From positions 4,219 to 68,218 of the forward strand of contig MEOL01000044.1 in NCBI GenBank assembly GCA_001769215.1: a stretch of DNA of 64,000 nt. Reading direction: 5' to 3'. The stretch comes from Bacteroidetes bacterium GWF2_41_31. Its GTDB lineage: Bacteria > Bacteroidota > Bacteroidia > Bacteroidales > F082. Below the pieces are notes generated by a model. That model made no database searches. It was not told where the DNA came from and saw nothing but the letters and a program-made list of their open reading frames with translations. A program made the position numbers and the translations under genes. The stretch's first letter is position 1. Every line of letters begins with the position of its first letter. Below, one piece after another: positions 13,361 to 36,082 of the stretch.

Positions 13361-13374
13361 TAAATAAGGTACCT

Positions 13375-14793: not shown

Positions 14794-14811
14794 TAGAATA
14801 AAAGGGAAACT

Positions 14812-15652: not shown

Positions 15653-17656
15653 TTACCTGCCAATAAACACAACTCTTTTACCTATGGAACTTAATCCGGT
15701 CAACGCGTCTTCGGTAGCGAAGATCCTGGTCAGTTCTTTCAACTCCGATTCACAACCTGAGGCTTCGTTAATCAGCTTTTCAGCTGTTTGCAAGGCAAGA
15801 GGAGCTTTTTGACCTATCTTTTTTGAGAGTTGCTGAGCTTCCTCAACAGGTAAAAAATCATTTTCTGATATTCCTGAAAGTATTTCATTTACAGAATATT
15901 GATCAAAAAATGAACTCAATGCATTAAAATGACCGCTTAAATTGGATTTCCTTTTTTCGGGTATCGCTTTGTAGCCATGCAGAACATCAAACAGGTCGGC
16001 GGGGTCGATGATGGCATCGATCAGTCCCATTTCTAAAGCAATCGTGGAATTAATAAATTGCCCTGTATAGATTAAATATTTTGTTAAGCCTTTGCCAATT
16101 TTCTGCGCTGTTCGTTGTGTGCCGCCGAGTCCGGGATAGATGCCTATGCCCGTTTCAGGAAACGCCATAACAGCCTGTGGCAGGGCGAGGACCGTATCAG
16201 CGCAAAGGGCCAATTCGAGTCCGCCTCCCAGGGCAAGACCGTTAAGAACCGCGACTACATTTTTTGCCGAGTGATCAATTCTATCATACACCTGTTGACC
16301 GAATTTTGAAAACAATTCGATATCTTTAAGCTTTCCTGCTTTCATATTTTTAACGAAAAACCGGATGTCGGCACCCGCTACAAATGCTTTTCCGGTCCCG
16401 GTAATAAAAATGGTGCTGACCGCAGGGTCGGCCTCTGCATCGCTGAATTTTTGGTCCAACTGTGCCATCACCGTTTCGTTGAGTGCGTTCATATCCTCCG
16501 GCCTCGACATGGTGATGGTCGCTAGCGCGCCGTCTTTTTCAAGGCTCACATAATCCAGGTGCCATTTTTGCACTTGAATGCCGCGGGGTAGTTCCATTTT
16601 ATATAACCTGGCTATTTTTTTTACTAACCTGTTCACTTCTTCAACACCGAATTTCAGCATTAAATCAATGGGGCCCAATCGCCAACGCAAGCCTATCCGG
16701 GCACCTCTGTTCAAATCAGAAGCCGAACATACATTTTCGGCCAGTATCTGAGAACAAACGAAGAAAACAACTCCTGCCATTCGTTCGGTAATCAGTTTTT
16801 CAAGTTCGCTGCTGACGGCAGCATTTTCTATGTCTCCCAAATCCCATGGATTACCTGATTCAGCCTGTTTTTGTAATAATGGGCACGTATGGTATAAATT
16901 CCCAAACACTTCCAGGGTTTTTTGAGCGTGATAAGCAATGGGAACGCCTGTGGCATTCATCAATGCAAATGGCCCCATTCCAATTCCAAAGAGTTTCATG
17001 CAGACCTTTTCAACCTGAGGAATGGTAACTGTTTTTTCTTCGTATAACCTGACGGCCTCGTTTAACCAGGGTACAAAAAACCTGTTAACGGCAAAGCCGT
17101 ATGTGTCGGCAGTTGTGATGGCGTCTTTACCTGCCAGAACAGAAAATACCTGCATGGTTTTATATGTTTCAGCAGAAGTCTCTTTACCCGGGATGATCTC
17201 AACCAACCTGTTTTTGGCTGCATGGTAAAAATAGTGCAAACCTATAAAACGGGCAGGATTTGAAATGGATTTGGAGAGTTCTGTAACAGAGAACGATGAG
17301 GTATTGGTGGCGATGATGGTATCCTGACCGACGATCGAATCCAGTGTTTTAAAAAGTTCGCATTTAGCGTCAAAGTTTTCGAAAATAGCCTCCACGATCA
17401 AATCACAGGCTTTTAATCGTTCAAGCTGATGCGTTCCCGAGATGTTCGAAACAATCGATTCAACTTGTTTTGCTGAGAATAGTCCGCGCTCAACACCTTG
17501 ATTTAAAATGTCTTTTATTCCGTTGATTCCTTTATCAACATATTTCATTTCCCTGTCGGCAAGAATCACCTTAAAACCTTGTTGAGCAAATTTTTGTGCA
17601 ATTGCCGAGCCCATGGTTCCTGCGCCAACAACACCTACCGTGTTAATTTTTTTCAT
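15653..17656 (-). CDS. bifunctional 3-hydroxyacyl-CoA dehydrogenase / enoyl-CoA hydratase
   Basis: N-terminal NAD fold VGVVGAGTMGSAIAQ (3HCDH). The C-terminal crotonase domain shows ITGTGKAFVAGADI .. LALGGGLELAL. Confidence 0.85.
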   Translation of the reverse strand: MKKINTVGVVGAGTMGSAIAQKFAQQGFKVILADREMKYVDKGINGIKDILNQGVERGLFSAKQVESIVSNISGTHQLERLKACDLIVEAIFENFDAKCELFKTLDSIVGQDTIIATNTSSFSVTELSKSISNPARFIGLHYFYHAAKNRLVEIIPGKETSAETYKTMQVFSVLAGKDAITTADTYGFAVNRFFVPWLNEAVRLYEEKTVTIPQVEKVCMKLFGIGMGPFALMNATGVPIAYHAQKTLEVFGNLYHTCPLLQKQAESGNPWDLGDIENAAVSSELEKLITERMAGVVFFVCSQILAENVCSASDLNRGARIGLRWRLGPIDLMLKFGVEEVNRLVKKIARLYKMELPRGIQVQKWHLDYVSLEKDGALATITMSRPEDMNALNETVMAQLDQKFSDAEADPAVSTIFITGTGKAFVAGADIRFFVKNMKAGKLKDIELFSKFGQQVYDRIDHSAKNVVAVLNGLALGGGLELALCADTVLALPQAVMAFPETGIGIYPGLGGTQRTAQKIGKGLTKYLIYTGQFINSTIALEMGLIDAIIDPADLFDVLHGYKAIPEKRKSNLSGHFNALSSFFDQYSVNEILSGISENDFLPVEEAQQLSKKIGQKAPLALQTAEKLINEASGCESELKELTRIFATEDALTGLSSIGKRVVFIGR

Positions 17657-17712
17657 TTTATCGTGTGTATGAATAATTGAATTAATTCAAAGGGTTTCAT
17701 GCTTAAAAGTGG

Positions 17713-18486
17713 CTATGAATTTTTCCATTCGGGTTTTCTTTTTTCCATGAATGAAAGGATGCCTTCATTGGCATCATGCGTTTCCATCAGCTCTTTGATG
17801 AAAACCTTCTCCAGCTTCCTGAGGTTTTTTCTGAACAGTTTATTTAAAATAATCCGGCCCGAACGGACTGAATACCTCAAAGAACTGGCACTTTTGGGAA
17901 GTATGTGTTTTTGAATCCAACCATCAGTTTCCAGAATCAGGGTTTCCTTGTCCTCATAAACATGGTTTAGAAGCCCGATTTTTTCAGCCTCACCGGCATC
18001 AATTGTTTTTCCGGTAATTAACAATTCCTCGGCCCTGGCGCTACCAATTTTTAGTGGCAACAAAATGGAAGCAGGCGGCGGGAACACGCCCAGCATAATC
18101 TCAGGCTGACCGAGTTTTGCAGTGCTATCGGCAAACATGAAATTGCAGATTAAGGCAAGTTCGTGGCCACCACCAAGACATTGGCCCGAAATTTTTGCTA
18201 AAGTCGGAATCGACAAATTGACCAGATTGTAAAACATCCCGTGAAAGCTGTGAAGCATTTCCGCAACCTGGTCTTTGGTATGTTCTTCAACCGATGCCCC
18301 GAAGGAAAAGTGTTTTCCGGCACCTTCAAAAGTAATGATTTTAAGATCCGGCTTTTTCTTAAATTCTTTGAACAGTTGGTTTAATTCCCGCATCATGATG
18401 CTGTCCAAAACATTTCCTTTGCCATCGTTCAGGATGATTTCTGCCACCTGACCATCGTATTTATAATTGAGTTCTACCTTTTGCAT
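17713..18486 (-). CDS. dch: enoyl-CoA hydratase family; candidate cyclohexa-1,5-diene-1-carbonyl-CoA hydratase
   Basis: Crotonase fold of 257 aa with GAGKHFSFGASVEEH. It sits next to oah and had in a bcr cluster. The specific function is inferred from context. Confidence 0.55.
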   Translation of the reverse strand: MQKVELNYKYDGQVAEIILNDGKGNVLDSIMMRELNQLFKEFKKKPDLKIITFEGAGKHFSFGASVEEHTKDQVAEMLHSFHGMFYNLVNLSIPTLAKISGQCLGGGHELALICNFMFADSTAKLGQPEIMLGVFPPPASILLPLKIGSARAEELLITGKTIDAGEAEKIGLLNHVYEDKETLILETDGWIQKHILPKSASSLRYSVRSGRIILNKLFRKNLRKLEKVFIKELMETHDANEGILSFMEKRKPEWKNS

Positions 18487-18551
18487 TTATTTGATATTTA
18501 GTGTATTGAATTGACGGGTAACGAATATTCAATAGTTAATCATTAACTCAT

Positions 18552-19634
18552 TCACCCTTTTACGGGAGAAATTGCCTTTTGCATATCCTCGTCCCAGCCC
18601 ATACCTTTTGCAAGCATTTGCCTTAGTTTAATAAAGTCCACTTCCCGGTTTTCGCGCGGACCATCGTTAAAGGCTTTAAATCCGGCACGGCCTTCAGTCA
18701 TCATGTTTAAGGCCAGCCAATCCCTGTTCGATTCTTTGTTTTTGTCCCAATGTTCGAGTTTTTTCTTTCTGATGGAGTTGATGGTTTTACTCAGGCAATT
18801 GGGCATTAAATACAGGAGTTTTGTGCACATCCTTTCAACGGCAGCGTCCAACAATGATAAATCAATAACTCCTGCTTTAAGCAGTTCTTTTGCATTGGAC
18901 AGTTCTGCTCCTTGTTTTGGTGTTCCGTAAATAATTTCGCCCTGTTGATTAACCCATTGGGTAGTATAGACCATTGGGTTTTGAATAAATTCGCCGTTCA
19001 CCTTTAATGCAGGAACGATTTCCGATAACAGGCCGTATCTTTTTGCTTCATGCGCCGACCAGGGATCGCATACGGTGCAGGAATACATGGCCAACTCAAC
19101 ACCTACAAACAGGTTTAGGAAATCCGTTGAGCCACCATCCGGGGCACTTCCGTGTTTGGGGCCGGCCTGGCCAAAACGCGCTAAATCCTGTGCTATCGAA
19201 AAATCACAGGCCATGCCAATTTCCTGTCCGCCGCCTATCCTCATGCCATTCACCCGGTTTATAACGGGTTTGTCGCTCATTAATATGCCAGAAACCATGT
19301 CGTTAAACAACCTCATATACTGTTTGTACTCTTGTGGGTTTCCGGCGTAATATTCGGCATATTCCTTTGTGTTTCCACCCGTACAAAAGGCTTTGTCGCC
19401 CACGGCAGTAAATACAATGGCTACCACGCTCCGGTCGTTTGACGCTTCCCTGAAAGCAAGGATGACTTCTTTTACGGCCTGTGTAGTATACGAATTGAAT
19501 TGTGCAGGATTGTTTAAAATAATCCAGGCATTAAATAACCCCTCAACCGGCTTGCCTTCTTTATCAAGGCAGGCTCTTTTTTCGAATAGAATTTCCTTGT
19601 ATTCTACTTCAGTTAAATTGTGGTTTACAAGCAT
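18552..19634 (-). CDS. oah: 6-oxocyclohex-1-ene-1-carbonyl-CoA hydrolase (ring-cleaving, BamA/Oah)
   Basis: It contains QFNSYTT and GGGQEIGMACDF, the regions targeted by the widely used bamA marker primers, plus FCTGGNTKEYAEYYAGNPQEY. Confidence 0.85.
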   Translation of the reverse strand: MLVNHNLTEVEYKEILFEKRACLDKEGKPVEGLFNAWIILNNPAQFNSYTTQAVKEVILAFREASNDRSVVAIVFTAVGDKAFCTGGNTKEYAEYYAGNPQEYKQYMRLFNDMVSGILMSDKPVINRVNGMRIGGGQEIGMACDFSIAQDLARFGQAGPKHGSAPDGGSTDFLNLFVGVELAMYSCTVCDPWSAHEAKRYGLLSEIVPALKVNGEFIQNPMVYTTQWVNQQGEIIYGTPKQGAELSNAKELLKAGVIDLSLLDAAVERMCTKLLYLMPNCLSKTINSIRKKKLEHWDKNKESNRDWLALNMMTEGRAGFKAFNDGPRENREVDFIKLRQMLAKGMGWDEDMQKAISPVKG

Positions 19635-19667
19635 CTTTTTATTTTTTATTGATTAATATTCAATTAT

Positions 19668-20729
19668 TTAAAAATCAGGAAATAACACTGACCTGCGGGT
19701 GTATTTATGATCCAACGTATTCATGAAAACCTCGTTTATTTTCGACATGGGGAAAGTCTCGATAAAGGGCCCGATCTTTAGTTTCCCCTGATCGATGAAC
19801 TCCAGCACATCTCCATAGAGTTCAGGTTTGCAGCCCCATGTTCCAATCAATTTAGCGTCAAAAGCCATCAGGTTGCTTAACCTCACCTGTGTTTTGTCCA
19901 TTGTAAAACCAACAATCGACATGGTTGAGGCATAGGTAATTAAGTTAAAACCAAGTTCCTGGCCTTGCGGGGTTCCTGACATTTCAAATATCTTCCACCC
20001 ATATTTTGAAGCACCCAGTTCTTTCGCGATCTCCCTTACTTTTTGTTTTACCTCTCTAACATCCAATCCTTTAACGTTTAATATGGCATCAACACCATGT
20101 TTTTTTGCTAAATCGAGTTTTTCATCGCTGATATCCAACGCGAGTACCCTGGCACCAAGAATTTTAGCTAACAACGATCCATAAATACCAACCCCGCCAA
20201 CGCCTATAACAATCGCGAAGTCACCTATTTGTAATTCCGATTTTTTTAACACCTGATACGGCGTCGTAATGGCATCGGCAACCACAGCCAGTTCAGCGAG
20301 TTTGTATTTGTCGAGGACACTCTCAGGCACATGACATAAGCTCCTGTGGGGCACTTTGATATGTGAAGCAAAGCCTCCATCAAAGTCATTGCCGGGCATC
20401 AGCTGATTTTGACAAATATTTCCCCTGTCGTTTTTGCATAATTCACATTTGCCGCATGGCAGCACGGCTGGGATAATCACTTTTTTATTTATCAGGTGCC
20501 CGGGGCCTGAAAAGATCGTGCCACTAATTTCATGTCCGAGTGTAAGTGGAAGTGAATGTTTTGTTTGAACTCCATAATGCCAAAAACTCAGGTCGGTATG
20601 ACATACCCCGCAGCCAGCGATTTTTACAATTACTTCGTCCTCATTTATCTCAGGAAAATCACTTTCTGTGAGTATAAAATCAGATTTTAACTCTGTCATT
20701 TTCCATGACTTAATCTTATTAGGTTCCAT
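19668..20729 (-). CDS. had: Zn-dependent alcohol dehydrogenase family; candidate 6-hydroxycyclohex-1-ene-1-carbonyl-CoA dehydrogenase
   Basis: GCGVCHTDLSFWHYG zinc-ADH signature and GVGGVG NAD fold. It is adjacent to oah. Confidence 0.7.
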   Translation of the reverse strand: MEPNKIKSWKMTELKSDFILTESDFPEINEDEVIVKIAGCGVCHTDLSFWHYGVQTKHSLPLTLGHEISGTIFSGPGHLINKKVIIPAVLPCGKCELCKNDRGNICQNQLMPGNDFDGGFASHIKVPHRSLCHVPESVLDKYKLAELAVVADAITTPYQVLKKSELQIGDFAIVIGVGGVGIYGSLLAKILGARVLALDISDEKLDLAKKHGVDAILNVKGLDVREVKQKVREIAKELGASKYGWKIFEMSGTPQGQELGFNLITYASTMSIVGFTMDKTQVRLSNLMAFDAKLIGTWGCKPELYGDVLEFIDQGKLKIGPFIETFPMSKINEVFMNTLDHKYTRRSVLFPDF

Positions 20730-20757
20730 ACTTTGTTAATGATTAAATGAGGGATGA

Positions 20758-22020
20758 TTAAATATTTACATTTTCAAACAATACAGCAGTACCTTGTCCG
20801 CCGCCAATACATGCAGAAGCAATTCCATATTTTACTTTGCGGATGTTCATCTCACGCGAAATAGTGAGTGAAAGCCTAAGTCCGGTGGCTCCCAAAGGAT
20901 GGCCCAGGGCGATGGCACCACCATTTACGTTGGCAATGGCCCTGTCGAATCCCAGTTCTTTTTCACAGCCAATAAATTGAGCCGCAAACGCCTCATTGAT
21001 TTCAATAAGGCCGATTTCATCCATCGATAAACCTGTTATTTCGAGCAATAACCTGATAGCGGGAACCGGTCCCAATCCCATTAATTTCGGATCGATGGCG
21101 CTGGTGGCCGAAGCAACTACTTTGGTCAGTACTTTCCTGTTGAGGGAGTTGGCTACCTCTTTGTTCCCAATAACCACCGAGGCAGCGCCATCGACAATGC
21201 CACTGGAATTTCCGGCGGTTTGAACTCCATCTTTGCCAAATACCGGTGGTAATTTGGCGAGTTTTTCCAAATCTGTAGGGCGTATGTTTTCGTCCGTAAT
21301 AAAATGTTCTACTCCCCGGGGTAATCTCACTTTTCGGGGAACCAAACCTTCTGCTTCAAATACCGTTGAGTTGACGGCCATTATTTCATCATCGAAAAAT
21401 CCATTTTCCCTGGCGGCGATAGCGGTATCGAAAGATCTCTTTGCGAAGACATCTACTTCTTCGCGGGTTATATTGTATTTTTTCGCTACATTTTCAGCCG
21501 TAACCCCCATGGGATAACCGGCTGCCGTGTCGTTTAACGATTCCCATAGCATATCTTTAAAGTTCGGTTGCCCAAAGGCATATCCCATCCTGTTTCCAAA
21601 ACTTACCGTAGGGGATTGGCTCATGCTTTCGGTACCTGCGCACAGCACGGTAGCTGCTTTTCCTAAAATAATTTGTTCAGCGCCCGTGACGATGGTTTCA
21701 AAGCCGGAACCACAAATCCTTTGCACCATGAGTGAAGGAATGGTTTGTGGAATGCCCGAGAACAACGAAATATGGCGGGGTAAAAAGTAAGTGTCAGCCG
21801 AACTTTGTCCAATGTTGGCGATGATGACCTGATCGATATTTTGCGGGTTTACAGATGATTTTTCAAGAGCCGATTTCGCGGCAAATATCCCTAAGTCGGT
21901 GGGAGATACAGAACCCAACGTTCCACTAAGTTTGCCAAAGGGAGTCCTGGCTCCGCCGATTAAAAAAATATCATCATAGATGATAGCTATTCCTTTTACT
22001 TTGTCATGGATTGATTTCAT
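20758..22020 (-). CDS. acetyl-CoA C-acyltransferase (thiolase)
   Basis: Thiolase active-site contexts QRICGSGFE and GIASACIGGGQG. The ATG at 22020 overlaps the upstream stop (ATGA). Confidence 0.85.
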   Translation of the reverse strand: MKSIHDKVKGIAIIYDDIFLIGGARTPFGKLSGTLGSVSPTDLGIFAAKSALEKSSVNPQNIDQVIIANIGQSSADTYFLPRHISLFSGIPQTIPSLMVQRICGSGFETIVTGAEQIILGKAATVLCAGTESMSQSPTVSFGNRMGYAFGQPNFKDMLWESLNDTAAGYPMGVTAENVAKKYNITREEVDVFAKRSFDTAIAARENGFFDDEIMAVNSTVFEAEGLVPRKVRLPRGVEHFITDENIRPTDLEKLAKLPPVFGKDGVQTAGNSSGIVDGAASVVIGNKEVANSLNRKVLTKVVASATSAIDPKLMGLGPVPAIRLLLEITGLSMDEIGLIEINEAFAAQFIGCEKELGFDRAIANVNGGAIALGHPLGATGLRLSLTISREMNIRKVKYGIASACIGGGQGTAVLFENVNI

Positions 22021-22799
22021 GGTTCTGGATTTAAATGATTGACAAATGACTTTTGGGCTATACATGCTGCACCAAAAGCGTTGATTAATTGCGGGTTTTC
22101 AGGAATGGTTACCCGAACATTGAATTTCTCCCCGATGATGTTTTGTAGGTAAGGGTGATATTGAGCAACTCCCCCGATCAGATAAACAGGTAGTGAATTG
22201 TCTGTCGGGATTTTTTGTATTCTGTTGGCAATTGAAATATAGATTCCCTTGGCCAGGTCTTCATCTGATGTATCGTCGAAAATCCATTTCATGATTTCGG
22301 TTTTTGCAAACACCGTACAAAAACTGTTTAACTCTTTGTCGGAAGTTGATTTGGCAGCAAGCCGGCTCATATCAAGAACATCCAATTCGGCCCTTTCGGC
22401 CACTTCGGTTATAAACGCTCCCGTGCCCGCGGCACATTTGCTGTTCATGTAAAAGTCAATGACTTTACCGTTTTTATCGCTTTTTAAAAGTTTAATATCC
22501 TCTCCACCAATATCAATAATGGTTTTATCAATTGGATTGAGTTGTGTGACCCCGGCAGAAGCGCAGTACAGTTCAGTTTTAATTAAATCAGCAGATTTCA
22601 GTAGTTTTCTCCCATAACCGGTTGAACAAGTGTATTCAACTTTAAATTGATTTATCACCTGGTCGATCACATCATCCCTTTTGTTGTTTCGGGCCATGGT
22701 TTTGAAAATATCGCTGTGTACAATACCACAATTGGAATTGATCACAACCAATTTTGTGTAAAGTGACCCGATATCAACACCTAAGAAAAACTTCTGCAT
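22017..22799 (-). CDS. BcrA/BcrD/HgdC-type ATPase (acyl-CoA dehydratase/reductase activase)
   Basis: GVDIGSLYTKLVVI and CAAGTGAFI (ASKHA fold with a cluster-bridging Cys). 260 aa. Confidence 0.8.
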   Translation of the reverse strand: MQKFFLGVDIGSLYTKLVVINSNCGIVHSDIFKTMARNNKRDDVIDQVINQFKVEYTCSTGYGRKLLKSADLIKTELYCASAGVTQLNPIDKTIIDIGGEDIKLLKSDKNGKVIDFYMNSKCAAGTGAFITEVAERAELDVLDMSRLAAKSTSDKELNSFCTVFAKTEIMKWIFDDTSDEDLAKGIYISIANRIQKIPTDNSLPVYLIGGVAQYHPYLQNIIGEKFNVRVTIPENPQLINAFGAACIAQKSFVNHLNPEP

Positions 22800-22807
22800 G
22801 GTTTTTA

Positions 22808-23791
22808 TTAATCTAAAAAAGCATCTTTTGCATGGCTTTCAATATAATTCTTCTGAGTAATGGCCTTTACCAAGTTAGTGAAAACTAAGTTTATAGGAGT
22901 TTTAATGTAGTGTTTCCTACCATAATCAACAAATTTTCCGTTCATGTAATCTATTTCTGTTTCTCTTTTGTTGATGAGGTCGACGGCCAGTGAAGGGAAG
23001 TGGTTTCCGGCTTTTTTCAGGTAACGAATACAGAGTTTAATAAAATTTTGTTCGAATACAATATCCTCTGCTTTAGCCACCTCCATAGCCTCGGCTATTA
23101 TTTGTTCAACTATTTCAAGAGTATCCGGATTCGCCATGGCTTCCTTCATCGTATGAGCCGAAATGGCACACAAAGGGCTTAGGGCCGCGTTTAAAATAGT
23201 TTTAATCCACGCTTGTTCTACCACTTTGAATGAGTTGACACTGGTGGTTTGCAAATCCTGCGAAGTCAGGATATCGGCTATTAAATTCGCGAGTTCACTC
23301 TGACTGTCGTCGATGGAGCCCACATAGTTTGGCGGATTAAAAAATGTTACATTAACCACATTTGGGGCATTCAGGTTTCCGGCAAAATTTACGATCATTC
23401 TAAAAATCCGGGAATCGTCAAAATGACTTTGATATTTTATTCTGATGTCAATCCCGTTTTGTGCAATCAATAATTTAAGTCCGTTGTGATTTGATGCATC
23501 AATTTGATTTAAAACGGAATCTACATGATATGCTTTTACCGAACTAATCAACAGGTCAAATTTGTGCTCCATCAGTTCGGGAATTGATGAATAGATGTGT
23601 TTTAAGTAGGCAGTCTTGGTGATGGCCCCGACCAGTTCTATCCCTTCTTCTTTAATTAAATTGAGTTTTCTTTTGTCGACATCGCAAACGGCCACTTCAC
23701 AGCCTGCCTGTTTAAAGTGAACGGCCAAAATCAAGCCTACAGGTCCCAGGCCAATAATTCCTACTTTAAAGTCTTCTGGTTTCATATTCAA
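22808..23791 (-). CDS. ketopantoate reductase (ApbA/PanE) family NAD(P)-dependent oxidoreductase
   Basis: GIIGLGPVGL Rossmann start. C-terminal PSLAVDLINKRETEIDYMNG is typical of the KPR family. Confidence 0.75.
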   Translation of the reverse strand: MNMKPEDFKVGIIGLGPVGLILAVHFKQAGCEVAVCDVDKRKLNLIKEEGIELVGAITKTAYLKHIYSSIPELMEHKFDLLISSVKAYHVDSVLNQIDASNHNGLKLLIAQNGIDIRIKYQSHFDDSRIFRMIVNFAGNLNAPNVVNVTFFNPPNYVGSIDDSQSELANLIADILTSQDLQTTSVNSFKVVEQAWIKTILNAALSPLCAISAHTMKEAMANPDTLEIVEQIIAEAMEVAKAEDIVFEQNFIKLCIRYLKKAGNHFPSLAVDLINKRETEIDYMNGKFVDYGRKHYIKTPINLVFTNLVKAITQKNYIESHAKDAFLD

Positions 23792-23802
23792 GTCTATTTA
23801 AA

Positions 23803-25005
23803 TTACGAAGATATTTGTTCGAGTAACGTTTCGATTTTAATGGTGGATTGCTCTTCGGAGAAAAACCTTAAATCACACAAGTCTCCCTCTATAATCAATG
23901 TTTCAACACCTGTTTCTTCTTTCAATTTGGCAGGCATCCCAAATCTTGAATTTGAATTATTGAAGCATGTTTTAGCTTCATGAAAAATAACCCCGGTAAT
24001 CCTAAAATCATTTATCAGATCTTTAAGTATTGCCAATTTGGCCCGTTCGCTTCGGTTGATAAAAATTTTGGTATAGGCAAGTGCCGAGGATTCAAAAGGC
24101 GTTCGTTCGTCGAAATCGTCAAAAATCCAGCTGTTGCAATAGGTAGATGCCACCACTGCCGAATGGTGATGCGTGAAAAGATCTGATAAAAACCGGAGCC
24201 TGCCCCAAATAGGCATTCCTTCCCAATATATCCTGCTTGTTTCTTTGGGTAAAAAGCCCACTTTATTCTTAACGTTCACTTCAAGTTCATCCGACAGCAC
24301 TTTATAATAAGCTTTCGCGGTTTCTGTTCCTCTTAAAACAACTATGGGGCCCATGTGAATGGTAGCATCAAAAAAACTAATGGGTGCCGGGGTATGGATG
24401 GAGGTTTCGAGTGTTTTTTTCCATAAAAGGGTGGCCTCTTTACTGAGCCGAAGTGTTTCACGAAACTGGTCGATATCAAATTTATTACCGCTAACACGTT
24501 CACATTCGGGTATTAAAGATTTAAACTGACTCGATACATTGTCAATATCGGCTTGTTTTACCTCATCCATGTGCCTGGGAGGTACAATTCCCAGGATTGG
24601 ACATTTGTACTGATCGGCAAAGTAACTAAACCAGTCCTGGACTTCTCGGCACTGATTGGTGTTGTATACTATTAAATCAGGAATGGGTTGGGCATCCAAA
24701 CCATAATGTTTTGTTAATGGAGTTGATTTTTGAATGTGCGATCCGATGTCGGAAGTGAGGTATGAACAAATGTCGGAAGGATAACCGATTTTTGACGCAA
24801 CCGGGATATAGTCCATTGCTTTTCGGGTAGCTCCCAGCAGGGCCCCGTGGTTTTCAGGAAAATAAACTTCAAACCCAAAAGAACGTAACAACTCCGCCGG
24901 CCCAACGCTGGTGCACCAGACAAGGGGTTTGGATCTGGATTTCAAATCCCGGAAATAATTGTTCATTACCTCTTTAAGTAAGGCGGATGCTGCTATTTCA
25001 TACAT
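23803..25005 (-). CDS. single-subunit benzoyl-CoA reductase / 2-hydroxyacyl-CoA dehydratase family protein (double-cubane-cluster-protein-like)
   Basis: Family-typical N-terminus (PLVWCTSVGPAELLRSFGFEVYFPENH) and many conserved-looking Cys. 400 aa, with no partner subunit gene adjacent. Confidence 0.65.
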   Translation of the reverse strand: MYEIAASALLKEVMNNYFRDLKSRSKPLVWCTSVGPAELLRSFGFEVYFPENHGALLGATRKAMDYIPVASKIGYPSDICSYLTSDIGSHIQKSTPLTKHYGLDAQPIPDLIVYNTNQCREVQDWFSYFADQYKCPILGIVPPRHMDEVKQADIDNVSSQFKSLIPECERVSGNKFDIDQFRETLRLSKEATLLWKKTLETSIHTPAPISFFDATIHMGPIVVLRGTETAKAYYKVLSDELEVNVKNKVGFLPKETSRIYWEGMPIWGRLRFLSDLFTHHHSAVVASTYCNSWIFDDFDERTPFESSALAYTKIFINRSERAKLAILKDLINDFRITGVIFHEAKTCFNNSNSRFGMPAKLKEETGVETLIIEGDLCDLRFFSEEQSTIKIETLLEQISS

Positions 25006-25009
25006 TTAT

Positions 25010-26740
25010 TTAGTATTGGTCAACCAATGGTATCATATAATATTCTTCTTCTATTTCTTTATCTTCTCCATAAATCCTCTGTATATGAGCTTTAAAAACC
25101 TCTTTTACACTGTTGGGCATCATTTTCATGGAGGCGGTAAGGGTCTTATCTTCTACACTTAAATCTCCGTTGATCAGCATGGCGCTGTTGATACGGGCAA
25201 ATTTTTCAACAATTTCGCCATTGACTTTTAATAAACATTTATTTAGGCAAAATGCAAGATCCTGCATGTTATGGGGGCATGCGCAGTTTTCAATAGAAAT
25301 GTTGTTGCCGTTACCCGAGGAATTTAAGAGTGTTTTATTTGGAAATAATAAGGCTACAGGAAATTGCCGGCCACTGCCTTCAACCAAAACATAAGATAGA
25401 AATGAGCATCTGCCAAGTATGAGTTTCTCGAGATCGGATGGGATTACTTTCTCGGCGTTTAACAGCTTAAAAATCCTGTCTTTTCTGGCGATAAGTTTTA
25501 ATCCTGTTTCGGTAAACTCGCCAACGTCGCCCGTGCAAAACCATCCGTCGGCAGAAAAAGCTTTGGCGTTGGCTTCGTCATTTTTATAATAGCCTTTCAT
25601 TACGTTGGGGCCGAGTATGTGTATTTCATTGTCTTCTGCCAGCCTTATTTTCACTCCGGGAATCGGCTTGCCGACAACACCGGAGACCCTTTTTACAGTT
25701 GGATCGGTAAGTGTACAACAGGGGGTTGTTTCGGTGAGTCCCCATCCTTCTATAACCCGCACTCCTCTTTTTTCAAATTCATCAGAAATATTTTTTGGCA
25801 ATGGTGCGGCTGCAGTGAAAACAAATTTTAAGTCAGAATGGAAAAATAATTCTTCCGCTTCTTTACTCTCTTTAGCCAGGGTGTAGAGTGATTGATAAAC
25901 CATGGGGACACTAAAAAAGATCGTAGGTTTGACCAATTTCCAGTTTTCCAAAATTTCCAGTGCATCAATACCGTAGCTCGATTCAAGATACATTTCGGCT
26001 CCATTGTGAATGGCTGTTATTTTCTCGAAGATTCCGCCAAAACTGTGGTGCCAGGGTAAATAGCTGAGAAATCTGTCGTGCTCGTTCACATCCCACAGAG
26101 TATCCAGGGCGGCTTGCTGCGACAAGATATTCTTGTGCGTAAGTTGCACGCATTTTTGTTCGCCCATAGTGCCTGAGGTGTACATATTTAAGCAAACCTC
26201 TTCGGGATCTGCTTCAAAATCCAAGCTAAAGCTGCCAAAATCAACGGGGGCAATAAGTTCTTTAAATGGAATAATTTCGGGGAAACTGTCGTGTTTAATC
26301 TCGTCAAACGAAAAAATCTTTGTAAAGTTTAAATTGGGGTTAATTCTTTCGATTTGAACATCCCCACCTACAAAAATATATTTTGAATCGGAATGTTGAA
26401 AGAGTTTGGTAACTACTTCTTCTTTTAAGTTGTGAAAAATGGGAACAATGATGCCTCCCGAGGCCTGGATTGCAAATTCAGTTTGGAGCATTTCGACCCG
26501 GTTTTTCGAAAAGATGAGAACCTTTTCACCTTTTAAGAATCCTGATTTTTGCAGGTTAAAAGCGATTCGCTTAATATTTGTATAAAATTCCGGCCATTTA
26601 ATTCCTTCATAAACATGGTTGTGCTTTTGTTTGAAAACATATCTTGTACTGAATTTTTTTACATTCGTCCTCAGCATTTGCGCCATATTTGGAGTCATTG
26701 TGCCTAATTCATGTTCCGATTCAAGAATGGTTTTACGCAT
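25010..26740 (-). CDS. AMP-dependent acyl-CoA synthetase/ligase
   Basis: AMP-binding motif YTSGTMGEQKCV, later GWFCTGD. 576 aa, so more like long-chain acyl-CoA ligases than canonical benzoate-CoA ligase. Substrate unknown. Confidence 0.8.
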   Translation of the reverse strand: MRKTILESEHELGTMTPNMAQMLRTNVKKFSTRYVFKQKHNHVYEGIKWPEFYTNIKRIAFNLQKSGFLKGEKVLIFSKNRVEMLQTEFAIQASGGIIVPIFHNLKEEVVTKLFQHSDSKYIFVGGDVQIERINPNLNFTKIFSFDEIKHDSFPEIIPFKELIAPVDFGSFSLDFEADPEEVCLNMYTSGTMGEQKCVQLTHKNILSQQAALDTLWDVNEHDRFLSYLPWHHSFGGIFEKITAIHNGAEMYLESSYGIDALEILENWKLVKPTIFFSVPMVYQSLYTLAKESKEAEELFFHSDLKFVFTAAAPLPKNISDEFEKRGVRVIEGWGLTETTPCCTLTDPTVKRVSGVVGKPIPGVKIRLAEDNEIHILGPNVMKGYYKNDEANAKAFSADGWFCTGDVGEFTETGLKLIARKDRIFKLLNAEKVIPSDLEKLILGRCSFLSYVLVEGSGRQFPVALLFPNKTLLNSSGNGNNISIENCACPHNMQDLAFCLNKCLLKVNGEIVEKFARINSAMLINGDLSVEDKTLTASMKMMPNSVKEVFKAHIQRIYGEDKEIEEEYYMIPLVDQY

Positions 26741-26772: not shown

Positions 26773-27618
26773 TCACTTTTCCGCCATCGCTTTTAATTTG
26801 AGTTTATTGTGCCTGAACCCGCCCCAAATGGCAGCTCCAATGGCACCTGCAAAAATGGAGTCGTCGAAAGCCACAATGTTTTCGGGATTCATGTTTGCTT
26901 TTTCGGCCAATTCTTTAACGGTTTGAACCATCCCGGTGTTAGAGGCCATACCTCCTGTTAATACGATGGTTCCGTTGGCATTTAAAGAATTAAGCAGCTT
27001 GATCACCCTGTTCGAGATGGAGATATGGATCCCTTTCACTATATCAGGTGTTGAGATTCCCCTTGAAACCATATTGATTACATCCGTTTCGGCCAGTACG
27101 GCACATATTCCTGATGGCGTTTCGGGATGGGTCGATTTTAACGACATATCGCCTACTTCGCTAATTGCCAGCCCTAAGTACCTGGAAATATTTTCGATAA
27201 ATTGTCCCGAACCGCTGGCACACTGACCTGTCATTTTGTAGTCCATGACTTTGCCTTGGTGGTCAATCTTTATCGCTTTAACATATAAAGCGCCCATGTC
27301 GACTACGTAGTCTGCTGTCGGGTATAAGTACAGTGCGCCCCGGGCATGGGTGGTCATGCTGTAAAAGTGGCCTTTTTTTCGGGCAACCATTTCCCCTTCG
27401 CCGGTAGAGGCCAGGTAAGCAATGTGCTCGTGCGTTAATTTATTTTTTTCCAGCAGGTAGTTTATCGATTCTTCTGCAACGGTGGCCGGATTTCGTTTTC
27501 TGATTTTTTCAATGTGTTTATCCAGAATTTGGATCGCAGTATCAGAATAATTCATGAGTACGGTTTTAATGTAGCTACTTCCTACATCAATTCCCATCGT
27601 ATAAATACTTTCGTTCAT
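26773..27618 (-). CDS. bcrD: benzoyl-CoA reductase ATPase subunit delta (BcrD/BadG-like)
   Basis: MGIDVGSSYIK and CASGSGQFIE. At 281 aa it is the last gene of a C-B-A-D ordered set. Confidence 0.75.
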   Translation of the reverse strand: MNESIYTMGIDVGSSYIKTVLMNYSDTAIQILDKHIEKIRKRNPATVAEESINYLLEKNKLTHEHIAYLASTGEGEMVARKKGHFYSMTTHARGALYLYPTADYVVDMGALYVKAIKIDHQGKVMDYKMTGQCASGSGQFIENISRYLGLAISEVGDMSLKSTHPETPSGICAVLAETDVINMVSRGISTPDIVKGIHISISNRVIKLLNSLNANGTIVLTGGMASNTGMVQTVKELAEKANMNPENIVAFDDSIFAGAIGAAIWGGFRHNKLKLKAMAEK

Positions 27619-27633
27619 ATTAAAGAAATTTAT

Positions 27634-29022
27634 TTAGTTCTTTTTTAACGATGCCCTTCTGGCGAACATGGCACCTCCCAGTGCTCCCATGAAAATCGAA
27701 TCGGCATGAATATTTATTTTAATATCTTTTCCGTAATTGTCATTCACCATTTGACTTACATATTTTATTACGGCTTGGTTTCGGGCCACACCGCCAGTAA
27801 AAGTGAATTCATTCTTAACTCCTCCTGAACGCGCTATCAGCGACATGGCCCTCATCACGATTGATTTATGAAGGCCCGCGAGGATATTGGATCGTTCTTC
27901 ACCTACATTGAGTAATTCTCTTACTTCTGCTCCTGCGAAAACCGTGCAGGTAGAACAAATGGTTACTTCTTTAGTGGCTTCCAATGCTTCAGGTCCCAAT
28001 TCGTTTAGCGATATGCTGAATTCATCGGCTATGTATCCTAAATATCTGCCACAGCCCGCCGCGCACCGGTCGTTCATGTTAAAACTGGTAACCAGTCCGT
28101 AGCTGTCAACCTGAATGGCTTTGGTGTCTTGTCCGCCGATATCCAATACAGTGCGGGTAAATGGAAAAATGGCATGTGCACCAAACGCGTGGCATAAAAT
28201 TTCTGATTTGATCGAGTCTGCCGGAAAAGGAAGCAGGGCACGGCCATAACCTGTTCCCACCATATTGGCTATATTAAACTCGAAATCGGCAATAAAATCG
28301 ATGTGTTTTTTTAAAGAGTCAGACACATTTTCGTAATTTCCTGTCAGGATATTCAGTTCTGCATCAAAATGCCCACTTATTTCTCCTGTGTGTTTGTTTG
28401 ATCGGTCCTTATATTTTTCCTTCAATAACTCCACCGAATTGGTCAGGAGGTCTTTAAAATTGAAGTCGACCATTTCGTTTTCAACCGGGGTGATACTTTT
28501 ATCATAAACAAGCATCATGGGCTCGAAAAGTTCTTTATCAAGTTTTGCAATCTCTTCATTGTACTTTTCACTAATGATATCCCTGAAAAACTGATTGGAA
28601 TTGGCCAGATTACCATCAACAAATTCCAACTTTAACATCGGGTTTATTTTAGTGAAGATATTTTCAATATGTTGAATTATCTTGTCTTTCAGTCCATCAT
28701 TAAACGATTGGTTTGCAGTTTCCAATAACGCTGCATGAAATATGTCGCTCCTTCTTTTAAATTGCAGGTACTGGAATAGGGATTCAATATCATCGATGTA
28801 TTTTTTAAATTCAGGATGTTGTTTTATTTCATCTTCCAATTGTTTTTTCAACAAATAAAACCTTGCATTAAATATGGCTTCCAGTTTAGCAATTTCGACA
28901 GCGACCCGGTAATTGGCCCTTGTGTTGGTAATCCCCCTGCCAACGATTTCGTCTTTTTCGTTAATAATAATGGCTTTTGAGGTAGTTGAACCTAAATCGA
29001 CGCCTAAATAGAATCTTTTCAC
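27634..29022 (-). CDS. bcrA: benzoyl-CoA reductase ATPase subunit alpha (BcrA/BadF-like)
   Basis: GVDLGSTTSKAIII and CAAGCGRYLGY. A long insertion between the ASKHA halves gives 462 aa, as in the Thauera-type alpha subunit. Confidence 0.75.
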   Translation of the reverse strand: MKRFYLGVDLGSTTSKAIIINEKDEIVGRGITNTRANYRVAVEIAKLEAIFNARFYLLKKQLEDEIKQHPEFKKYIDDIESLFQYLQFKRRSDIFHAALLETANQSFNDGLKDKIIQHIENIFTKINPMLKLEFVDGNLANSNQFFRDIISEKYNEEIAKLDKELFEPMMLVYDKSITPVENEMVDFNFKDLLTNSVELLKEKYKDRSNKHTGEISGHFDAELNILTGNYENVSDSLKKHIDFIADFEFNIANMVGTGYGRALLPFPADSIKSEILCHAFGAHAIFPFTRTVLDIGGQDTKAIQVDSYGLVTSFNMNDRCAAGCGRYLGYIADEFSISLNELGPEALEATKEVTICSTCTVFAGAEVRELLNVGEERSNILAGLHKSIVMRAMSLIARSGGVKNEFTFTGGVARNQAVIKYVSQMVNDNYGKDIKINIHADSIFMGALGGAMFARRASLKKN

Positions 29023-29068
29023 TGGATTTTTTTTAATGATTACAACTGGATTTCAATAATGATAAAGC

Positions 29069-30346
29069 TTAAACATTAATTAGTTTTCTCTGTTCGAGCA
29101 TTTGGAAAAATGATTCGAGCCGGTTTTTAATATTGGAATACGAGAAATATCGCGGGTCAACCAGGTCTGATTCGATAAACCCGACCGGTATTCCCATTCT
29201 GTCTTCTAAAGTCCTCATAATTAATAATTGTCCGGCAGAGAACGAATTGCAGCTTTTAATAGAATTAACTAAAAAGCCATCCGCCTTATAGTCTTTAATT
29301 TCCTTTGCAAGCATTTCCACTCTTTGTGGAAGGTTCATGTTGGTGTAGCATCCCATACAGTATTCGGATAGACTTTCGAGCAACCTGTCGGGATCGTGTC
29401 TGAATCCATTTTTATATACTCCGCCAACCCGCGTATAGGATGATGCAACAATGACCGCCCCCATATCATAAAAAAGTTTCCAAAATTCCCTAAAACTGGT
29501 CCAGTTGGGCGGGCCTTCCACAACAAGCCGGTATCTTTCCTCTTCCATTTCGCCTTCAGGGGTTACCGGTCCCAAACCCAGACGGACGCGTTCCAGAATC
29601 TCGCTGTATAGTTCTTTGTAATATTCGGTGGCCTCGGGGGTTCCTCTGAAACCAATATTAATGGGTCCTATATAATAAACGCCTGCAAAATAGGCATCAA
29701 TAGGGGAGGGAACATTCTTGGTGGTATCGAAAATTTTAACGATTAAATCTTCTATGTCAGCTGAATGCTGAAGAATGGTCTTCAGCTTTTCGGGGTCGAA
29801 CTTTTGCCCCGAAACCTGCTCCATTTTCGGGATCACATCATTTTTAAGTTGCTTAACCATGTATTCGGTCATTTCGGCGGTTATTTCACCATTCTCCTGA
29901 TAAGGAGTGTGGATTAAAGCCACAGGAACGCCGGGATACAGTTTCTCCAGGTTTTCAAACCATTTCAAGAAGGTAAAACAACCTGTATAACTTAATAGCA
30001 ACAAATCGGGATCGGGAACTTTTTCGCCGGTAGGTCCAATATTTCCTTTCAGCATCATACCAATATCGCACTTTACATAAGTACAAACATCTTCTGAGTG
30101 TCCCCATTTTTCGGCCTCCCGGATGTAAGCATCCGATTTTTTTCTCATGCCCGATTGCAAGGCATTAATTTCGGGATAAACAGGAAGCATATCGAACGAA
30201 CGGATGAGCTCTGATAAATTTCCCGGAACAAAGGTGTACACCACTTTTTTCCCGGTTTGTTTCACGTTGCCAAGTTCTTTAAACAAATTTCCGATCATCT
30301 CCTTTTGGAGAATCATACTTCTTTCCTTTTTTACGTTTTCCGGCAT
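29069..30346 (-). CDS. bcrB: benzoyl-CoA reductase subunit beta (BcrB/BadE-like)
   Basis: BCR/HAD-family D-component fold. 425 aa, positioned between bcrC and bcrA. Confidence 0.72.
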   Translation of the reverse strand: MPENVKKERSMILQKEMIGNLFKELGNVKQTGKKVVYTFVPGNLSELIRSFDMLPVYPEINALQSGMRKKSDAYIREAEKWGHSEDVCTYVKCDIGMMLKGNIGPTGEKVPDPDLLLLSYTGCFTFLKWFENLEKLYPGVPVALIHTPYQENGEITAEMTEYMVKQLKNDVIPKMEQVSGQKFDPEKLKTILQHSADIEDLIVKIFDTTKNVPSPIDAYFAGVYYIGPINIGFRGTPEATEYYKELYSEILERVRLGLGPVTPEGEMEEERYRLVVEGPPNWTSFREFWKLFYDMGAVIVASSYTRVGGVYKNGFRHDPDRLLESLSEYCMGCYTNMNLPQRVEMLAKEIKDYKADGFLVNSIKSCNSFSAGQLLIMRTLEDRMGIPVGFIESDLVDPRYFSYSNIKNRLESFFQMLEQRKLINV

Positions 30347-30415
30347 ATTATTTTTCTTTCAAATTTCTTTTAAGAATTTCCTTTAACAATGAACGATCGC
30401 AAATAAACAGGTGTT

Positions 30416-35121: not shown

Positions 35122-36069
35122 TTAAAGAGAATTTAGTTCGGTTAAGGATTCAACTAAGTATGTTGTTAGCATTGTTTTTCTGTATTGGCGATCAAAAAAA
35201 TCGTTGTTAATAATTTTTGCTTTTCTATTAATTTCTTCATAAATGGCGTCGAAAGGGACCCCTTTTTTTGTGTTGACAACAACTGGATTTGGTGCAATCC
35301 CGGAAATGGCCATCTTAATGCGATGGTTAATATGAAGAGTTGAGGCTATCGTGAGCGAAGTAAATTCCAGGGTTTTTCTTTGTCTAAGCTTCTTGAAAGT
35401 GGATTTGATATGCTGGTTTAGAGGTAAAAGTATGAATTTTAAGATACTTTTCCTGTCAATCATTTTTGATTTTATTCCGTCCCCCGAATACAGGTCCTCC
35501 AAAGGAATTACGCTTTCAGAATCCTTATCCACCATCACCACTTTGGCATTTAAACTAATTAACGCGGGTGCCATATCTGACACAAATTTTGATAAACATG
35601 ATTTTTTTCCTCCGGTGGCAATACAAATGTCGCCTCCGCATTTCAGGCAATAACCGGCGGCTTCTCTCCATAGTGCGCTCTGGTTGTAGAAAATGCACCT
35701 GTTTTCACATAAGAGATTTCCTCCAATGGTTGCCTGATTTCTTATTAAAGGTGTGGCTACTGATTTTGCCGCCTCTATGATCACCTGAAAATATTCGTTG
35801 ATATATGGATTGGCGATTATTTCAGACAATTTTACTGCGGCACCTATTTTATACTCATCGCCATCCGGACTTGAAGTTGTTAGTTCAATTATATTGGTCA
35901 AATCGACCAGCCCATCAGATTCAAAGTTGCCCTGTTGCCGATTAACCATTATATCAGTGGCGCCTGAGATAAACGATAGGTTGCTTTTATTATTTATTAA
36001 TTCCAGCGCTTCCGAAATGGTTTCGGGGGTAAAATATGGTACTGAATCCGGTGGAGTTGTCATCTTCAT
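35122..36069 (-). CDS. hcrB: FAD-binding subunit of a xanthine-oxidase-family enzyme with a Cys-rich insertion; 4-hydroxybenzoyl-CoA reductase beta-like
   Basis: CoxM-type FAD domain (ISGATDIMV, ATIGGNL). A 35-40-aa insert follows with Cys at residues 121, 125, 141, 144, 149 and 158. Confidence 0.65.
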   Translation of the reverse strand: MKMTTPPDSVPYFTPETISEALELINNKSNLSFISGATDIMVNRQQGNFESDGLVDLTNIIELTTSSPDGDEYKIGAAVKLSEIIANPYINEYFQVIIEAAKSVATPLIRNQATIGGNLLCENRCIFYNQSALWREAAGYCLKCGGDICIATGGKKSCLSKFVSDMAPALISLNAKVVMVDKDSESVIPLEDLYSGDGIKSKMIDRKSILKFILLPLNQHIKSTFKKLRQRKTLEFTSLTIASTLHINHRIKMAISGIAPNPVVVNTKKGVPFDAIYEEINRKAKIINNDFFDRQYRKTMLTTYLVESLTELNSL

Positions 36070-36082
36070 GTTGTATAAAAAA

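Follow-up and report, generated by a model that had tools for sequence, protein, structure and literature searches.

Class I benzoyl-CoA reductases (BCR) and 2-hydroxyacyl-CoA dehydratases, together the BCR/HAD enzymes, are the textbook cases of ATP-driven ketyl-radical chemistry. To our knowledge, all characterised members that convert CoA esters are heterodimeric, and the only homomeric branch is that of the double-cubane cluster protein (DCCP) and YjiM, for which we know of no physiological substrate. Here we describe a gene module that lies in a 64,000-nucleotide stretch (the window) of contig MEOL01000044.1, positions 4,219 to 68,218, from Bacteroidetes bacterium GWF2_41_31. It consists of an AMP-forming acyl-CoA ligase, a protein of the HGD-D family that we call HGDX, an oxidoreductase of the ketopantoate reductase (KPR) family, and an HgdC/HadI-type ATPase or activase (ACT), and it is embedded in an operon of the benzoyl-CoA pathway. 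We propose, with a probability of about one half, that these four proteins make up an atypical (R)-2-hydroxyacyl-CoA dehydratase system that has no beta subunit, the likeliest substrates being phenylpyruvate/phenyllactate and their 4-hydroxy analogues.

Among the described systems, this one would work most like HadBC/HadI/LdhA/HadA of Clostridioides difficile and FldABC/FldI/FldH of Clostridium sporogenes. Like HadBC, it has a subunit with a predicted HadB fold, three cluster cysteines and a neighbouring Ser/Glu pair, and like both systems it has a dedicated HgdC-type ATPase together with a 2-oxo-acid reductase and a CoA-activating enzyme in the cluster. FldABC is also a precedent for a multi-enzyme complex in such a pathway. 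Unlike those systems, the module has no gene for a beta (HadC/FldC) subunit, which is one of their defining features. Its dehydrogenase belongs to the KPR family and not to the D-2-hydroxyacid dehydrogenase family and in relatives forms a fusion protein with either the activator or the dehydratase, the CoA ester is made by a ligase or an ADP-forming synthetase and not by a transferase, and the genes lie in a benzoyl-CoA degradation operon of the Fibrobacterota-Chlorobiota-Bacteroidota (FCB) group and not in a fermentative reductive branch.

HGDX also shares its subunit type, predicted fold, three cysteine positions and genomic neighbourhood with BcrB, MbdO and BzdO, and with MbdO it shares cysteines at three further positions (C31, C135 and C168 of HGDX), but it lacks the N/C-type partner and the two-gene ATPase of class I BCR. 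With DCCP/DCCP-R of Carboxydothermus hydrogenoformans and YjiM/YjiL of E. coli it has in common one HGD-D gene with one ATPase gene, the product being presumably homomeric. The dehydrogenase resembles the PanE/ApbA family, which includes D-mandelate and 2-ketoisovalerate/2-ketoisocaproate reductases, in both Pfam domains, in its match to TIGR00745 and in the full catalytic set, and differs from PanE in being in an aromatic-catabolic operon and, in most relatives, in sharing one polypeptide with an Fe-S ATPase.

HGDX and the proteins encoded with it

The module genes are tightly packed on the minus strand (Table 1). There are 4 nt between the ligase and HGDX genes, 11-17 nt between HGDX and KPR, for which an ATG at 23785, two codons inside the TTG-initiated open reading frame (ORF), is the likelier start, and 8 nt between KPR and ACT. 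ACT overlaps the following thiolase gene by 4 nt. The mechanical ORF of this thiolase (20758-22065) begins 45 nt too early; the true start at 22020, which agrees with the orthologues, forms an ATGA overlap with the ACT stop, and the thiolase and ATPase genes are translationally coupled. A scan of the operon for sigma-70 promoters and terminators gave only weak intragenic matches, which say little for a genome of the Bacteroidota. An earlier reading of this DNA from the letters alone (the sequence-only reading) had placed three genes between the CoA ligase and the lower-pathway genes and had taken them for a 400-residue BCR/HAD-type protein without a partner subunit, a KPR-family oxidoreductase and a third BcrA/D/HgdC-type ATPase. 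The three ORFs are exactly where they had been placed, and the family assignments stand, as described below. The lack of a partner holds for the window, in which tblastn detected bcrB, bcrC and HGDX as HGD-D genes and no fourth.

HGDX matches PF06050 with 184.5 bits (cut-off 28.4) over residues 34-398, and hence belongs to the HGD-D superfamily. Its match to HadB in the Protein Data Bank (PDB; 3o3m_A) has an E-value of 1e-47 at 27% identity. When the AlphaFold2 model of HGDX was compared by Foldseek, the TM-scores were 0.90 for HadB, 0.84-0.88 for MbdO/BzdO and 0.77-0.80 for DCCP, which thus ranks below HadB and the BCR catalytic subunits, and about 0.71 for the beta-type subunits HadC, MbdN and BzdN. 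By alignment and by model, HGDX is therefore assigned as a predicted subunit of the substrate-binding type, that is, of the type of the HadB alpha subunit and of BcrB/MbdO/BzdO. Its identity is 27-28% to the BcrB of the operon and 18% to BcrC, and it falls far below the equivalog cut-offs of the BCR B/O families (145.9 bits against 486.55 for TIGR02260 and 52.8 against 448.6 for TIGR03191). Relatives of HGDX are annotated publicly as '2-hydroxyacyl-CoA dehydratase family protein' and nothing more specific.

The predicted [4Fe-4S] ligands of HGDX are Cys80, Cys119 and Cys347. They align with the cysteine columns of HadB, MbdO and BzdO, the ligands in BzdO being Cys95/128/380 (PMC11971306), and they are invariant in an alignment of 28 orthologues. 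The pair Ser33/Glu51, which adjoins the cluster, aligns with Ser37/Glu55 of HadB and Ser44/Glu65 of BzdO. At the position of His131 of BzdO, the proton donor of the Bzd-type enzyme, HGDX has Val and HadB has Ala. In the FCB clade five more cysteines of HGDX are invariant, namely, 31, 135, 168, 290 and 377, of which C31 and C290 alone persist, semi-conserved, in relatives that are 36-52% identical. C31 and C290 align with distal-cubane ligand positions of BzdN and DCCP, C31, C290 and C377 are predicted to be placed near the cluster, and Gly35 stands in the alignment where BzdO and HadB have the Trp or Phe that fills the space of the lost sub-cluster. A second metal site in HGDX is, on these alignments, conceivable.

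The sequence-only reading had likened HGDX and its ATPase to the DCCP/DCCP-R and YjiM/YjiL pairs and had proposed the cysteine ligand pattern as the check. Of this likeness, the apparent homomer with its own ATPase stands; every further resemblance fails. The seven-cysteine motif of DCCP, CX19CX18-19CX29CX166-170CX32-34CX32C (PMC7317905), was not matched in HGDX by a regular-expression search, the cysteine spacings of HGDX being 48, 38, 15, 32, 121, 56 and 29. The score against NF040772 is 48.7 bits where the cut-off is 350, cysteines occupy no more than two of the three positions that ligate the distal cubane, and the best matches are HadB, MbdO and BzdO. HGDX was thus rejected as a DCCP/YjiM-type protein, and the ligand pattern that it keeps is that of HadB/MbdO/BzdO. 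That it might be a degenerate duplicate of bcrB or bcrC was likewise rejected on the identities given above and on a dN/dS of 0.07 against the near relative L010 (loci of the survey are given as L numbers), the values for KPR, ACT and BcrB being 0.03, 0.08 and 0.06. The HGDX gene is intact and under purifying selection.

KPR matches PF02558 (ApbA, 72.5 bits) and PF08546 (ApbA_C, 97.4 bits) and passes the cut-off of TIGR00745 (151.6 against 141.35), so that it is a member of the PanE/ApbA family. It stays below all PanE equivalog cut-offs (for example, 109.8 against 252 for NF005091), its genomic context is catabolic, and its best relatives in the PDB are KPR and D-mandelate dehydrogenase entries; an enzyme of the pantothenate pathway is not indicated. 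E. coli KPR uses K72, N98, K176, N180, S244, D248 and E256 for catalysis and substrate binding, and among them Ser244 and Asn98 bind the carboxylate of ketopantoate (PMC3478992). Their equivalents in the window, K86, N112, K197, N201, S267, D271 and E279, are each at least 95% conserved in 72 orthologues. Since both the catalytic and the carboxylate-binding residues are conserved, the substrate of KPR is most likely a free 2-oxo acid. We considered whether KPR might pass electrons from NAD(P)H to the cluster of the ATPase and set this aside, as its domain appears to hold no flavin or other converter of hydride to single electrons.

ACT scores 172 bits against TIGR00241, 'acyl-CoA dehydratase activase' (cut-off 125.4), and is 29% identical to BcrD and 28% to BcrA of the operon. 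Its cluster cysteines, Cys122 and Cys161, and the motifs KCAxGTG and SFCTVFAKTE are at least 95% conserved in 65 orthologues. The module thus has a dedicated HgdC/HadI-type ATPase with two cluster cysteines, and it is adjacent or fused to KPR in 61 of 65 loci.

The ligase is of the FACS/feruloyl-CoA synthetase type and not of the benzoate-CoA ligase type. Its best PDB matches are feruloyl-CoA synthetase, in first place, and fatty-acyl-CoA synthase, the separation between them being too weak for a substrate assignment. The C-terminal domain is AMP-binding_C_3 (PF23562) and carries a clade-specific motif of four cysteines, CxCP-x9-C-x3-C, that is kept in the FCB ligases and absent from the distant ligase of L092.

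Conservation, fusions and gene order in the FCB group

The synteny survey was done by tblastn over 80 loci from species genomes, all of them metagenome-assembled genomes of the FCB group. Orthologues of HGDX of about 400 residues, 64-98% identical, were found in 80 of the 80 sampled genomes. Among species-representative genomes, at least 579 stretches match HGDX-specific peptide patterns and encode a relative. Complete genomes with the module exist too, for example, CP064983.1. The gene order is near-invariant: bcrC-bcrB-bcrA-bcrD, CoA synthetase, HGDX, KPR, ACT, thiolase, had, oah, dch and the fusion of 3-hydroxyacyl-CoA dehydrogenase and enoyl-CoA hydratase (3HCDH-ECH). KPR and the ATPase follow HGDX in nearly all loci that reach that far, and a CoA synthetase is directly upstream of HGDX in 65 of 72 FCB loci (37 AMP-forming, 28 ADP-forming). 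Exceptions to this setting are L045 and L080, in which HGDX stands alone among housekeeping or efflux genes.

The reductase beside the module varies. In most loci it is the Thauera-type bcrCBAD. In L015 it is a Bzd-type BCR, with BzdN and BzdO above the equivalog cut-offs, and in L001 it is possibly a class II BCR, judged by a Bam-like electron module that was identified from Pfam content only. In L001/L002 the genes upstream of the module (1-5220) are HdrA-like, FlpD, NuoE-like, NuoF-like and Fer2 genes, which resemble BamEFGHI; a BamB-type subunit would fall beyond the region examined. In L090-L093 the module genes are on contigs of 6.5-43 kb that have no BCR, which may be elsewhere in the genome. 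Among these, L092 has KPR, an acyl-CoA dehydrogenase (ACAD), HGDX (49% identical), ACT and an AMP-forming ligase, L091 has HGDX, ACT and an ADP-forming synthetase, and L090 has a KPR-HGDX fusion and ACT followed by genes for a molybdenum enzyme like 4-hydroxybenzoyl-CoA reductase (Hcr). Because the genes recur beside differing reductases and on BCR-less contigs, CoA synthetase, HGDX, KPR and ACT form the evolutionary unit, and HGDX does not borrow BcrC. The three genes that the sequence-only reading had treated as a unit are indeed conserved together far beyond the genome of the window; the unit itself is larger by the CoA synthetase. Within 10 kb on either side of HGDX in the 80 loci there was no HGD-D gene that could encode a beta-type partner except bcrB/bcrC or bzdN/bzdO.

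KPR, which the earlier reading had counted as a member of the module, turns out to be conserved in it and to be more than a loose neighbour. In 51 of the 65 FCB loci that hold both genes, KPR and ACT are a single ORF of about 620 residues (for example, 617 residues at L029 11797-13650). They are separate but adjacent, as in the window, in 10 loci, and hcr genes lie between them in the remaining 4, from Ignavibacteria. A different lineage has KPR as an N-terminal fusion partner of HGDX (P0121 in L090, 728 aa). Since KPR is fused with the ATPase or, elsewhere, with HGDX, the fusions suggest that HGDX, KPR and the ATPase form one physical complex. Two further KPR-HGDX fusions, P0128 and P0142 (L094 4477-6783), are 33-39% identical to HGDX and have all three canonical cysteines replaced; these are presumably cluster-less, non-radical proteins. 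Literature searches found no paper on this gene combination or on a dehydrogenase-activase fusion, and searches on BCR in Ignavibacteria and on MbdONPQ found nothing relevant.

Across L010-L089 the slot upstream of HGDX is filled by one of two non-homologous enzymes, the AMP-forming ligase or an ADP-forming synthetase with CoA_binding and ATP-grasp_5 domains, and this exchange is a non-orthologous displacement. Many loci with the ADP-forming synthetase have, next to HGDX, a free-standing ORF of about 150-160 residues with the ligase C-terminal domain and its four-cysteine motif, located either upstream of the synthetase or in the gap between HGDX and KPR-ACT; the one at L029 11244-11726, for instance, matches PF23562. 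That the domain survives as a separate ORF after the ligase has been replaced suggests that it has a role of its own in the complex.

Several lineages depart from the common order. In L030, L044, L065, L071 and L021 a bcrD orthologue (63-66% identical) is immediately before the CoA synthetase, and the 5-7 kb upstream hold no bcrC, bcrB or bcrA; regulators, proteins of the type IX secretion system (T9SS) or hcr genes are there instead. L015, L017 and L020 have, beside a Bzd-type BCR, an ADP-forming synthetase, HGDX, KPR, a HisC-family aminotransferase, a second KPR, a MobA-like gene, XdhC, a 2-oxoacid:acceptor oxidoreductase and hcr-like genes, with no dedicated ATPase within 10 kb. In L001, L005, L028, L048, L051, L059 and L068 the genes downstream of ACT are hydantoinase A/B, a TrpB-like pyridoxal phosphate (PLP) enzyme, RidA, an ACAD and a B12-dependent mutase, a set that replaces thiolase-had-oah-dch in some lineages.

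Proposed reactions and alternative explanations

The products of KPR-family enzymes are (R)-2-hydroxy acids, and the substrates of HAD-type dehydratases are (R)-2-hydroxyacyl-CoAs. From the conserved gene set, the fusions and the conserved ligand and catalytic residues we infer the enzymatic steps, the oligomeric state and the substrate as follows. With NAD(P)H as the reductant, the KPR-family enzyme would turn a 2-oxo acid into the (R)-2-hydroxy acid, and the CoA synthetase, AMP-forming here and ADP-forming in many relatives, would convert this to the (R)-2-hydroxyacyl-CoA. The HgdC-type ATPase, as a homodimer, would use ATP to pass one low-potential electron into HGDX. HGDX, probably a homodimer of HadB-like subunits, would bind the thioester through the one iron of its [4Fe-4S] cluster that has no cysteine ligand, and by way of a ketyl radical the 2-hydroxyl group would be eliminated to give the 2-enoyl-CoA, the electron being recycled. 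The relay role of the missing beta subunit would be taken by the second HGDX protomer or by an extra metal site. In a benzoyl-CoA operon the likeliest substrates would be phenylpyruvate/phenyllactate and the 4-hydroxy analogues, derived from Phe and Tyr. The products would then be cinnamoyl-CoA and 4-coumaroyl-CoA, which the hydratase/dehydrogenase and thiolase of the operon could take to benzoyl-CoA and 4-hydroxybenzoyl-CoA, the latter being dehydroxylated by the Hcr-like enzyme. A 2026 paper has put forward the sequence phenylpyruvate, phenyllactyl-CoA, cinnamoyl-CoA and benzoyl-CoA, as a hypothesis only and in another organism.

Several findings speak for this proposal. The nearest relative of HGDX is HadB, the substrate-binding subunit of a dehydratase, and a dehydrogenase, a CoA-activating enzyme, a dehydratase and an activator are the content of the had and fld clusters. 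The link to benzoyl-CoA is independent of the type of reductase, be it Thauera-type, Bzd-type (L015) or Bam-like (L001). Genes that make 2-oxo acids are in or near the module: the HisC-family aminotransferase lies between the two KPR copies of L015, L017 and L020, and L001 and L005 have a PLP enzyme and RidA downstream. In Ignavibacteria and in L090, Hcr-like genes lie within the module or beside it, which fits a route from Tyr to 4-hydroxybenzoyl-CoA.

Other findings weigh against the proposal. We know of no characterised 2-hydroxyacyl-CoA dehydratase that is not a heterodimer, and a beta-type subunit gene is not next to HGDX in any of the 80 loci. NF052455 (HadB) is the best named family of HGDX, but the score of 200.3 bits is far from its equivalog cut-off of 750. 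HGDX is almost as similar to Thauera-type BcrB/MbdO as to HadB, and because of this near equality (27-28%) a dehydratase cannot be told from a reductase by sequence alone. A dehydratase leaves the five extra invariant cysteines without an explanation, the fusions of KPR to the ATPase or to HGDX would join steps of the route that are not consecutive, which is unusual, the aminotransferase is in only 3 of 80 loci, and the ligase is possibly just the benzoate-CoA ligase of the operon.

An alternative, which we consider unlikely, is that HGDX and the ATPase are a stoichiometric ATP-driven reductase, BCR- or DCCP-like, of a substituted aroyl-CoA or an alicyclic CoA ester. The adjacent ligase would supply the substrate, for example a hydroxybenzoyl-CoA, and KPR would reduce the keto tautomer of the product or join the complex in some other way. 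The similarity of HGDX to BcrB/MbdO, which about equals that to HadB, and the tie of the module to benzoyl-CoA genes in almost all genomes would agree with this, and fusions of KPR with the ATPase and with HGDX suit an enzyme that needs its ATPase stoichiometrically. With C31 and C290 at distal-cubane positions and with Gly35, a second, electron-storing cluster is also conceivable from the alignment, but two extra cysteines, only semi-conserved in the wider clade, are too few for a cubane. Further, the module has no gene for a ferredoxin or other electron donor, its ATPase is a single HgdC-type gene, and HGDX lacks the His that is the proton donor in Bzd-type BCR. The carboxylate-binding residues that KPR keeps speak for a free acid and against a CoA ester, and with a free 2-oxo acid as the substrate of KPR dehydratase chemistry is favoured over a low-potential reductase. 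The sequence-only reading had left the choice between a reductase and a dehydratase acting on a CoA ester undecided, and it is these residues that tip it to the dehydratase, with the reductase kept as a rival. Its general idea, an uncharacterised ATP-dependent radical enzyme that would feed the benzoyl-CoA pathway, is upheld.

The same extra cysteines would allow an explanation that we regard as improbable, namely, that HGDX, as a homomer, represents an evolutionary stage between DCCP and the heterodimeric BCR/HAD enzymes. Part of the ancestral second-cubane site, made up of C31, C290 and perhaps C377 with Gly35 leaving the space open, would be retained in a self-contained three-enzyme machine whose ATPase is fused to an NAD(P)-dependent dehydrogenase. 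This machine would do ATP-driven radical chemistry that has not been described, its substrate being an aromatic or alicyclic CoA ester bound for the benzoyl-CoA pathway of FCB bacteria.

A role in the lower pathway is more improbable still. HGDX would interconvert glutaconyl-CoA and (R)-2-hydroxyglutaryl-CoA, and KPR would link 2-hydroxyglutarate to 2-oxoglutarate, so that the C5-dicarboxylate from ring cleavage would be tied to the tricarboxylic acid cycle and to the 2-oxoglutarate:ferredoxin oxidoreductase by which the BCR ferredoxin is reduced again. A variant would involve 2-hydroxyadipate or another related dicarboxylate. The ACAD of the operon has as its best match the model of non-decarboxylating glutaryl-CoA dehydrogenase, but at 276 against a cut-off of 470. 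The cluster has no glutaconyl-CoA decarboxylase, an orthologous ACAD (56% identical) adjoins HGDX in L092, and L008 and L015 have genes for a 2-oxoacid:ferredoxin oxidoreductase after the cluster. ADP-forming synthetases normally run toward ATP formation, but half of the loci have an AMP-forming ligase, which points to acid activation. Oxidation of 2-hydroxyglutarate by NAD(P)+ is, as is generally known, thermodynamically unfavourable, and the association with Hcr and the aminotransferase would be left without an explanation.

Finally, an accessory or alternative subunit of the neighbouring BCR that pairs with BcrC and BcrAD, or a decaying bcrB duplicate, might be suggested by the position of HGDX 2 kb from bcrCBAD, by its being of the same subunit type as BcrB and by the bcrD orthologue that stays with the module in five loci without bcrCBA nearby, but this is essentially excluded, being largely refuted by the low identity to BcrB, a dN/dS like that of BcrB, the conservation over 80 genomes, the ATPase of its own, and the occurrence of HGDX where the neighbour is a Bzd-type BCR (L015) or a Bam-like module (L001) and where the contig has no BCR (L090-L093).

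The surrounding genes and what the module may mean

The operon around the module is a genuine benzoyl-CoA pathway. BcrB, BcrC and BcrD exceed the NCBIfam equivalog cut-offs, the best match of BcrA being TIGR02259, and so do Had and Oah. The genes from the thiolase to the 3HCDH/ECH fusion are the lower benzoyl-CoA pathway, and their enzymes could also beta-oxidise the enoyl-CoA product of HGDX. The cluster holds two thiolases, and it also has the glutaryl-CoA-dehydrogenase-like ACAD and the Hcr-like molybdenum enzyme, whose [2Fe-2S] gamma and molybdenum alpha parts are fused in one ORF. The best NCBIfam matches of the Hcr-like subunits are TIGR03194, TIGR03193 and TIGR03195, and because all three score below the equivalog cut-offs its substrate may be other than 4-hydroxybenzoyl-CoA.

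Table 1. Positions in the window of the module genes, the operon and other features
Feature	Coordinates	Strand	Basis or remark
ACT, HgdC/HadI-type ATPase, 'activase' (260 aa)	22017..22799	-	PF01869 BcrAD_BadFG; TIGR00241
KPR-family oxidoreductase (327 aa)	22808..23791	-	TTG start; ApbA + ApbA_C
HGDX, HGD-D family (400 aa)	23803..25005	-	PF06050, sole Pfam match
AMP-forming acyl-CoA ligase (576 aa)	25010..26740	-	Pfam, NCBIfam; counted into the module
CxCP-x9-C-x3-C motif, ligase C-terminal domain (aa 486-502)	25235..25285	-	kept in FCB ligases
bcrC-bcrB-bcrA-bcrD, Thauera-type class I benzoyl-CoA reductase	26773..31624	-	NCBIfam TIGR02263, TIGR02260, TIGR02261, TIGR02259
bcrD	26773-27618	-	
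bcrA	27634-29022	-	
bcrB	29069-30346	-	
bcrC	30416-31624	-	
thiolase, had, oah, dch, bifunctional 3HCDH/ECH fusion	15653..22020	-	
Hcr-like molybdenum enzyme, FAD subunit and fused gamma-alpha	35122..38851	-	
fused gamma-alpha ORF of the Hcr-like enzyme (922 aa)	36083-38851	-	
low-GC island	8000-14800		GC 0.31-0.33
protein with CAP12/Pycsar-type TIR domain	11264-12307		in low-GC island
EcoO109I-like restriction endonuclease	12534-13283		in low-GC island
C5 cytosine methylase	13375-14793		in low-GC island
pgi, pgl, zwf, gnd	39487-44279	-	oxidative pentose-phosphate block

SusC/SusD and T9SS-tail genes in the window mark the organism as a member of the Bacteroidota, and the nearest genome is that of Bacteroidetes bacterium HGW-Bacteroidetes-16 (protein identity 97-99%, dS about 0.15). 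The 3' end of the operon abuts a low-GC island (GC about 0.42 elsewhere), which probably serves in defence, as it holds a restriction endonuclease, a methylase and a TIR-domain protein. The genes of the oxidative pentose-phosphate pathway form a single block upstream of the aromatic operon, with an O6-methylguanine methyltransferase gene in between.

With this module, a BCR/HAD protein of the substrate-binding type that appears to be homomeric is seen in a clear metabolic setting. Hundreds of genomes of uncultured Bacteroidota, Ignavibacteria, Chlorobiota and Kapaibacteria carry the module, nearly always tied to the degradation of benzoyl-CoA. Usually the activator and a dehydrogenase form one polypeptide, a fusion without precedent among the reports that we found. 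If the aryl-lactate route that we propose is true, it would be a new way in which phenylalanine and tyrosine are converted anaerobically to benzoyl-CoA and would explain the presence of benzoyl-CoA reductases in proteolytic FCB bacteria. If HGDX is a reductase instead, it would be a new ATP-dependent dearomatising or dehydroxylating enzyme. On either explanation the module is a tractable system for the delivery of electrons to a catalytic cluster without a beta subunit.

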